Positions 47,846 to 47,875 of a stretch of DNA of 64,000 nucleotides are shown here, in pieces. Numbering within the stretch: position 1 is the first letter of the stretch; each line of letters starts with the position of its first letter. The notes beneath the pieces were generated by a model, which was not told the origin of the DNA, ran no database searches, and worked only from the letters and a program-made list of their open reading frames with translations. Origin of the DNA: Candidatus Thorarchaeota archaeon (lineage in GTDB: Archaea; Asgardarchaeota; Thorarchaeia; Thorarchaeales; Thorarchaeaceae); contig DXJO01000014.1 in assembly GCA_019057475.1 (NCBI GenBank), positions 1-64,000 of the forward strand, given 5' to 3'. The position numbers and the translations under genes were made by a program.

Positions 47846-47875
47846 TTCCACGCGCTAGAGGAGATCTCTAGCACC
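47846..47875 (-). ncRNA. 30-nt BHB/BHL-type intron in helix 95 (E. coli ~2649/2650)
   Basis: Hairpin insert between GA|G and AA|A bulges; removal restores CAUGAAGC/GCUUCGUG stem. Confidence 0.8.

Follow-up and report, generated by a model that had tools for sequence, protein, structure and literature searches.

The 23S rRNA gene of a Thorarchaeia (Asgard) archaeon is interrupted in helix 95, the stem beneath the sarcin-ricin loop (SRL), by a 30-nt insert that is very probably a protein-free mini-intron of the relaxed BHB type (HBh′/BHL), predicted from its sequence to be spliced by EndA and RtcB. The gene lies at 47545..51083 on the minus strand of the window (the whole 64,000-nt stretch of DNA analyzed here) and was identified with the archaeal Rfam model RF02540 (2387.7 bits). 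The insert occupies 47846..47875 (minus strand, as for all window features below) and, numbered against E. coli rrlB, falls in the 5′ strand of helix 95 after approximately position 2649 (±1). Its classification draws on its absence from relatives, its geometry, and this numbering. The insert and all of the helices quoted in an initial annotation of this DNA were found at the places given there, on the minus strand. At 30 nt and with no LAGLIDADG ORF, the insert stands apart from the homing-endonuclease BHB introns. Since this is the sole full 23S copy in the assembly, splicing would probably be obligatory.

The host genome is a metagenome-type assembly of 3.34 Mb in 56 contigs, and a trivial account of the insert would be an error of assembly or sequencing. 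We consider the likelihood of such an artefact negligible, because an independent, diverged contig, JGI Ga0209986_10015608 (L045; 94.9% identity over 1087 nt), has the same insert with two substitutions. These changes, U.G to U-A and G-C to G.U (47860 and 47853), both preserve the hairpin pairing. The 30-nt insert is a real feature of this 23S gene. With two known carriers, there is no double-sided covariation within it.

Comparison with intron-less relatives, a check that the initial annotation had proposed, delimits the insert precisely. Two congeners (G004 and G006) are exactly 30 nt shorter across the region (361 versus 391 nt). Relatives have the junction GATGA-AGCC-GGTACG or near variants of it, and the gene described here reads CATGA-(30 nt)-AGCC-GGTACG; the nearest congener differs from the insert-bearing gene at the junction base. 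The spacer from the motif GACAGGTYG to the SRL could be measured in 42 family members and is 48 nt long in every one of them, compared with 78 nt here. In other Asgard genomes the same spacer is 48 nt in 55 cases, 47 nt in 1, and longer in 2, both of which have BHB-type inserts; this survey was anchored on the SRL, and two Atabeyarchaeia genes with a split SRL fell outside it and were added on re-check. As had been claimed, removing the 30 nt restores the family's 48-nt spacing together with an 8-bp helix 95 stem, CAUGAAGC/GCUUCGUG, in which 8 of 8 positions pair. The 3′ strand of this stem, GCUUCGUG, lies at 47820..47827 and would be the partner of CAUGAAGC after splicing; the stem covaries across the family.

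In an EndA substrate, the first base of the intron is the last base of the 5′ bulge and is followed by the intron's own helix; of the last six bases of the intron, four pair with the upstream exon and two belong to the bulge. The insert has this layout: its 9-bp hairpin is preceded by 1 nt and followed by 6 nt, as a BHB requires. Read in the direction of transcription, the predicted fold begins with the 5′ arm of an exon-exon helix h, UGCCGGC (47883..47889), which is present in the MFE fold with pair probabilities of 0.70-0.99. An unpaired A (A47882) follows, opposite the 3′ bulge, and then ACAU (47878..47881), which forms the exon side of the central helix H by pairing with the intron strand GUGG (47848..47851) as A.G, C-G, A-U, and U.G. 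The three-base 5′ bulge GA/G (47875..47877; slashes mark cuts) places the predicted 5′ cut between 47876 and 47875. The intron hairpin h′ (47852..47874; pair probability, 0.98-1.0) consists of 9 bp and an AUCUC loop (47861-47865). On the 3′ side, the bulge or loop AA/A (47845..47847) places the second predicted cut between 47846 and 47845, and the 3′ arm of the exon helix, GCCGGUA (47838..47844 by the fold and the numbering), spans SRL residues G2655-U2656-A2657, so that the precursor fold excludes the native SRL.

This geometry is that of a BHB rRNA intron in relaxed form, whose central helix has three standard pairs and one A.G pair. It departs from a strict hBHBh′ motif in its A.G outer pair and in the unpaired A opposite the 3′ bulge, and the 3′ site is an internal loop closed by the 7-bp exon-exon helix rather than a clean bulge. 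ViennaRNA folding makes the hairpin and the exon helix near certain and gives the three central pairs a probability of about 0.1, a value obtained with the A.G pair outside the model. That the 7-bp exon helix evolved together with the intron is not established: two intron-less relatives also have 7 bp there, and 13 of 44 have 4 bp.

Alignment alone permits a few registers for the insert, and BHB geometry occurs in just one of them. That register agrees with the alignment and corresponds to predicted cleavage after the second nucleotide of each bulge, the cut proposed initially. When the insert was shuffled and a hairpin of at least 5 bp was demanded, such geometry arose by chance in any of four registers with a frequency of 0.0019; when the real hairpin was retained and the flanks were randomized, the same test gave 0.005-0.012. 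Applied to other inserts in the family, the register test chose junctions that match those of intron-less relatives, and group I introns failed it. A degenerate intron, removed partially or in a shifted register (product CAUGAGGC), would find some encouragement in the weakness of the central helix and in the fact that shifted registers likewise yield an 8-bp stem, albeit with a G.U pair. We judge this highly improbable, since the BHB geometry singles out one register, the family design described below fixes the same one, and relatives sharing the 3′ strand almost always place an A opposite the U concerned.

If the mature rRNA kept the hairpin, which would then branch from helix 95 as a small expansion segment, no splicing would be needed. 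The initial annotation had held that only 4 bp of the helix 95 stem form in unspliced RNA; this stands for contiguous pairs, but a three-way junction could, on paper, keep all 8. The pairing of the hairpin is moreover conserved in L045, and real expansions exist in Asgard 23S rRNAs, such as an ES39-type insertion. Several lines of evidence nevertheless make a retained segment very unlikely. The three-way junction folds at -17.4 kcal/mol in ViennaRNA, 9.4 kcal/mol worse than the BHB fold at -26.8 kcal/mol. Length in this region is constant, as the uniform spacer attests, which is not the pattern of an expansion segment; the 1-nt and 6-nt flanks are what a BHB demands; the design recurs in tRNA introns, which cannot be retained; and inserts in variable regions mostly fail the BHB test. 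The same gene offers an example of the other kind of insertion: at about 47650-47711, in the ES39 region, it has roughly 60 nt more than the Rfam model. L045 differs from the host in this region at 16 positions, a variability expected of a true expansion segment.

The reading as a spliced relaxed BHB mini-intron calls for a suitable enzyme, and the initial annotation had argued that a broad-specificity EndA would be needed and that the genome's EndA should be typed. Typing bore this out. The host genome has two EndA genes (contigs C42 and C54) and encodes RtcB. The C42 product is an alpha subunit whose closest PDB relative is Aeropyrum pernix EndA alpha; it keeps the crenarchaea-specific loop (CSL/L1) with the K44-equivalent lysine, as well as the Y/H/K triad. 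The C54 subunit has neither the loop nor the catalytic His. Among the named sequences closest to the host's EndA, most are labelled Candidatus Thorarchaeota. The host thus encodes an (alpha beta)2-type pair with the loop and its lysine, as relaxed substrates require. The CSL/L1 loop confers broad specificity on EndA (PMC6379350), and (alpha beta)2 EndA with L1 has been reported from Asgard archaea (PMC5829648).

We propose that the precursor would fold into the relaxed BHB laid out in its sequence, with the 9-bp hairpin, the central helix (three standard pairs and A.G), the 5′ bulge of 3 nt, and, on the 3′ side, a cut site within a small internal loop that the 7-bp exon-exon helix closes. By known EndA chemistry, the (alpha beta)2 enzyme with its CSL/L1 lysine would cut GA/G and GGAA/A, in each case after the second bulge base. 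RtcB would then ligate GA to AGCC and free the 30-mer, giving the junction AACATGAAGCCGGTACG. The joined RNA has the sequence for normal spacing, the 8-bp helix 95 stem, and the SRL, all of which would presumably form in the cell; SRL bases are tied up in the exon helix, so refolding has to follow splicing. Cleavage might instead leave the two ends unjoined, producing a fragmented 23S rRNA like those left by bacterial intervening sequences. Both ends do lie within a stem able to hold them together, but RtcB is present, archaeal BHB introns are normally ligated, and a break in the chain five bases from G2655 would carry risk. We therefore find this outcome, too, highly improbable. A scan of metagenome contigs for spliced and unspliced forms found one unspliced contig, in a type of data in which cDNA need not occur.

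The insert fits a fixed-design family of 30-nt inserts that, judged by sequence, extends through the rRNA and tRNA genes of Thorarchaeia. In family 23S genes, inserts of 30-33 nt lie close to E. coli positions 196, 2440, 2477, and 2572, and longer inserts occur at about 2450 and 2599; the BHB register restores the intron-less junction in nearly all of them, and an A.G outer pair like that of the helix 95 insert recurs in several. In three family genomes (L063, L064, and L066), a 10-nt exon beside A2451 is all that separates two BHB introns, near 2440 and 2450. Dozens of inserts of 29-33 nt occur at about nine sites in family 16S genes. The host's own 16S gene has a 30-nt BHB intron after approximately 1386 (L044; contig C9, start 15358, plus strand), in place of which three congeners have an intron after approximately 1499. 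Four other 16S genes of the family (L180, L183, L185, and L186) carry three to five introns each, one of them immediately before the anti-Shine-Dalgarno sequence.

The shared design comprises a length of 30 nt, a 9-bp stem, and a pyrimidine-rich pentaloop. A profile of 32 Thorarchaeia 30-mers from 16S genes, built without the helix 95 insert, has a conserved loop at positions 9-17 (W-S-A-Y-U-U-C-S-W). Against this profile the helix 95 insert, with its hairpin at 47852..47874, scores 9.7 in register, and a fraction of about 0.0002 of shuffled sequences score as high, a p value that is approximate because the training inserts are related to each other. Slid out of register, the insert scores from -22 to +2.9.

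A tRNA(CAU) gene on host contig C34 is interrupted directly downstream of the anticodon stem by a 30-nt insert of the same design. In the central helix of this insert, ACCU/GGGG, the outer pair is again A.G, and excision at the predicted sites would give exactly the junction of intron-less copies in relatives. Because this tRNA needs the insert removed to work, the cell very probably processes relaxed motifs opened by A.G. When the whole genome was scanned for the design, 15 matches came up, compared with 2-8 in shuffled genomes. Five matches have a perfect 9-bp stem; besides the helix 95 insert and the 16S insert, they comprise two tRNA inserts and one unexplained site. A 30-nt stretch on contig C2 (11381, plus strand) with a perfect 9-bp stem lies outside known RNA genes and may be due to chance. 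Host tRNA genes with 30-nt introns are found on contigs C34 (24209-24315 and 19861-19995), C18 (118516-118623), and C9 (8955-9059); several of these introns are non-canonically placed, and both of those on C34 have the common loop design.

A second, unrelated intron lies close by in the same gene. At 47946..48374, after U2580, a 429-nt group I intron was recognized with Rfam RF00028 (114.2 bits); it has the conserved catalytic core, a U before the 5′ site, and a terminal G, as introns of this class do, and contains no ORF of at least 80 aa. The boundaries of the two introns leave an exon of exactly 70 nt between them (47876..47945), in keeping with the initial proposal, here too as a prediction from sequence, that one rRNA needs two unrelated splicing chemistries about 70 nt apart. 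The same group I intron occurs in L045 and in congener G004. Acquisition of the mini-intron by co-conversion with this group I intron is unsupported, as the latter is ORF-less and G004 has it without the mini-intron.

Absence of the insert from all other family members searched points, by parsimony, to a recent gain. Most likely this branch gained the helix 95 intron recently, as a passenger that is either selfish or neutral. No copy was found elsewhere in the host genome by BLAST, in the other fetched loci, or in viral contigs. No clear donor emerged: a direct jump from a 16S or tRNA copy is not shown, the best in-register identity to other 30-nt introns being 15-17 of 30 positions, a level explained by the shared design, and a 9-mer in common with a congener's 16S intron belongs to the loop consensus of the family. 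Introns at one of the family's 16S sites come in long (740-900 nt), 47-nt, and 30-nt versions, which makes shrinkage in place one route to mini-introns; a long version at L2649 was not seen in the genomes searched. A bolder model, which we put forward as speculative and rather doubtful, is that the 30-nt hairpin is mobile although it encodes no homing endonuclease, and that it colonizes new sites in the rRNA and tRNA genes of Thorarchaeia, perhaps through re-insertion at the RNA level. The helix 95 copy would then be a recent jump whose exon helix blocks the SRL until splicing, as a maturation checkpoint.

The splicing mechanism itself is already known. Staphylothermus marinus has two small 23S introns that are reportedly about 55 nt long and lie at other sites. 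These introns (Kjems and Garrett 1991, cited in PMC3608112) resemble the helix 95 insert in being ORF-less and occur in a different host; the title of the paper on them refers to a splicing-associated conformational change. Hairpin-forming BHB introns of less than 50 nt have been described in Thermoproteales 16S rRNA (Jay and Inskeep 2015, PMC4496867). Like the helix 95 insert, these are ORF-less, bounded by BHB motifs, located in conserved rRNA, and present in some strains only. The helix 95 insert differs from them in its position in 23S helix 95, its Asgard host, its relaxed 3′ site, its fixed 30-nt design, and its conserved loop, and it has no adjoining homing-endonuclease intron today. 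Nawrocki, Jones and Eddy (2018, PMC6125680) described archaeal rRNA genes that hold group I and BHB introns together, cases that resemble this one in that a single LSU rRNA gene involves two splicing chemistries unrelated to each other; the group I table of that paper lists no Asgard host and no L2580 intron, both of which are found here. As short hairpin BHB rRNA introns and the pairing of group I with BHB introns in one gene have both been published, the headline of the initial annotation is not new. The relaxed HBh′/hBH/BHL introns of tRNA genes (PMC6379350 and PMC5829648) share with the insert one clean bulge and one cut in a loop, and the host genome encodes the enzyme type and loop lysine of those systems. 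Unlike them, the insert has an rRNA substrate and an outer helix formed by exon-exon pairing outside the mature fold. No report of an L2649 intron or of Thorarchaeia rRNA mini-introns was found in a literature of limited coverage, and L2649 appears to be an unreported intron site.

Other Asgard lineages have BHB introns in the same part of the molecule. Sifarchaeum subterraneum (L033/L158) has a 36-nt BHB-type insert after approximately 2644, five bases upstream of L2649, and both Atabeyarchaeia genomes (L160 and L161) have a 34-nt BHB insert within the SRL, after G2661. Helix 95 has thus been hit at three Asgard positions (L2644, L2649, and L2661). A textbook BHB insert of 32 nt lies after approximately 2610 in Jordarchaeum madagascariense (L035/L130). 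One Asgard 23S gene (L157; G349) has about nine BHB-type inserts of 21-122 nt. Asgard rRNA genes, those of Thorarchaeia above all, are full of BHB introns of 29-36 nt, many of one design. Such mini-introns matter for annotation, where they can be mistaken for expansion segments, and for primers and probes, with several family 16S genes split at approximately 1499. They also bear on how ORF-less introns get to new sites, and the 81-nt region at 47815-47895 is a compact test substrate for Asgard EndA.

Outside the introns, the leader and trailer of the host 23S gene (window positions of about 51095-51130 and 47495-47530) form a canonical BHB processing stem, GGGU/ACCU, with bulges AAU and AGA. 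Downstream of the gene, copies of the 23S 3′ end lie at 41377-41474 and 43906-43953, and similar short copies occur in relatives. Elsewhere in the genome, ARAGORN called a selenocysteine tRNA on contig C42 (62504-62594).
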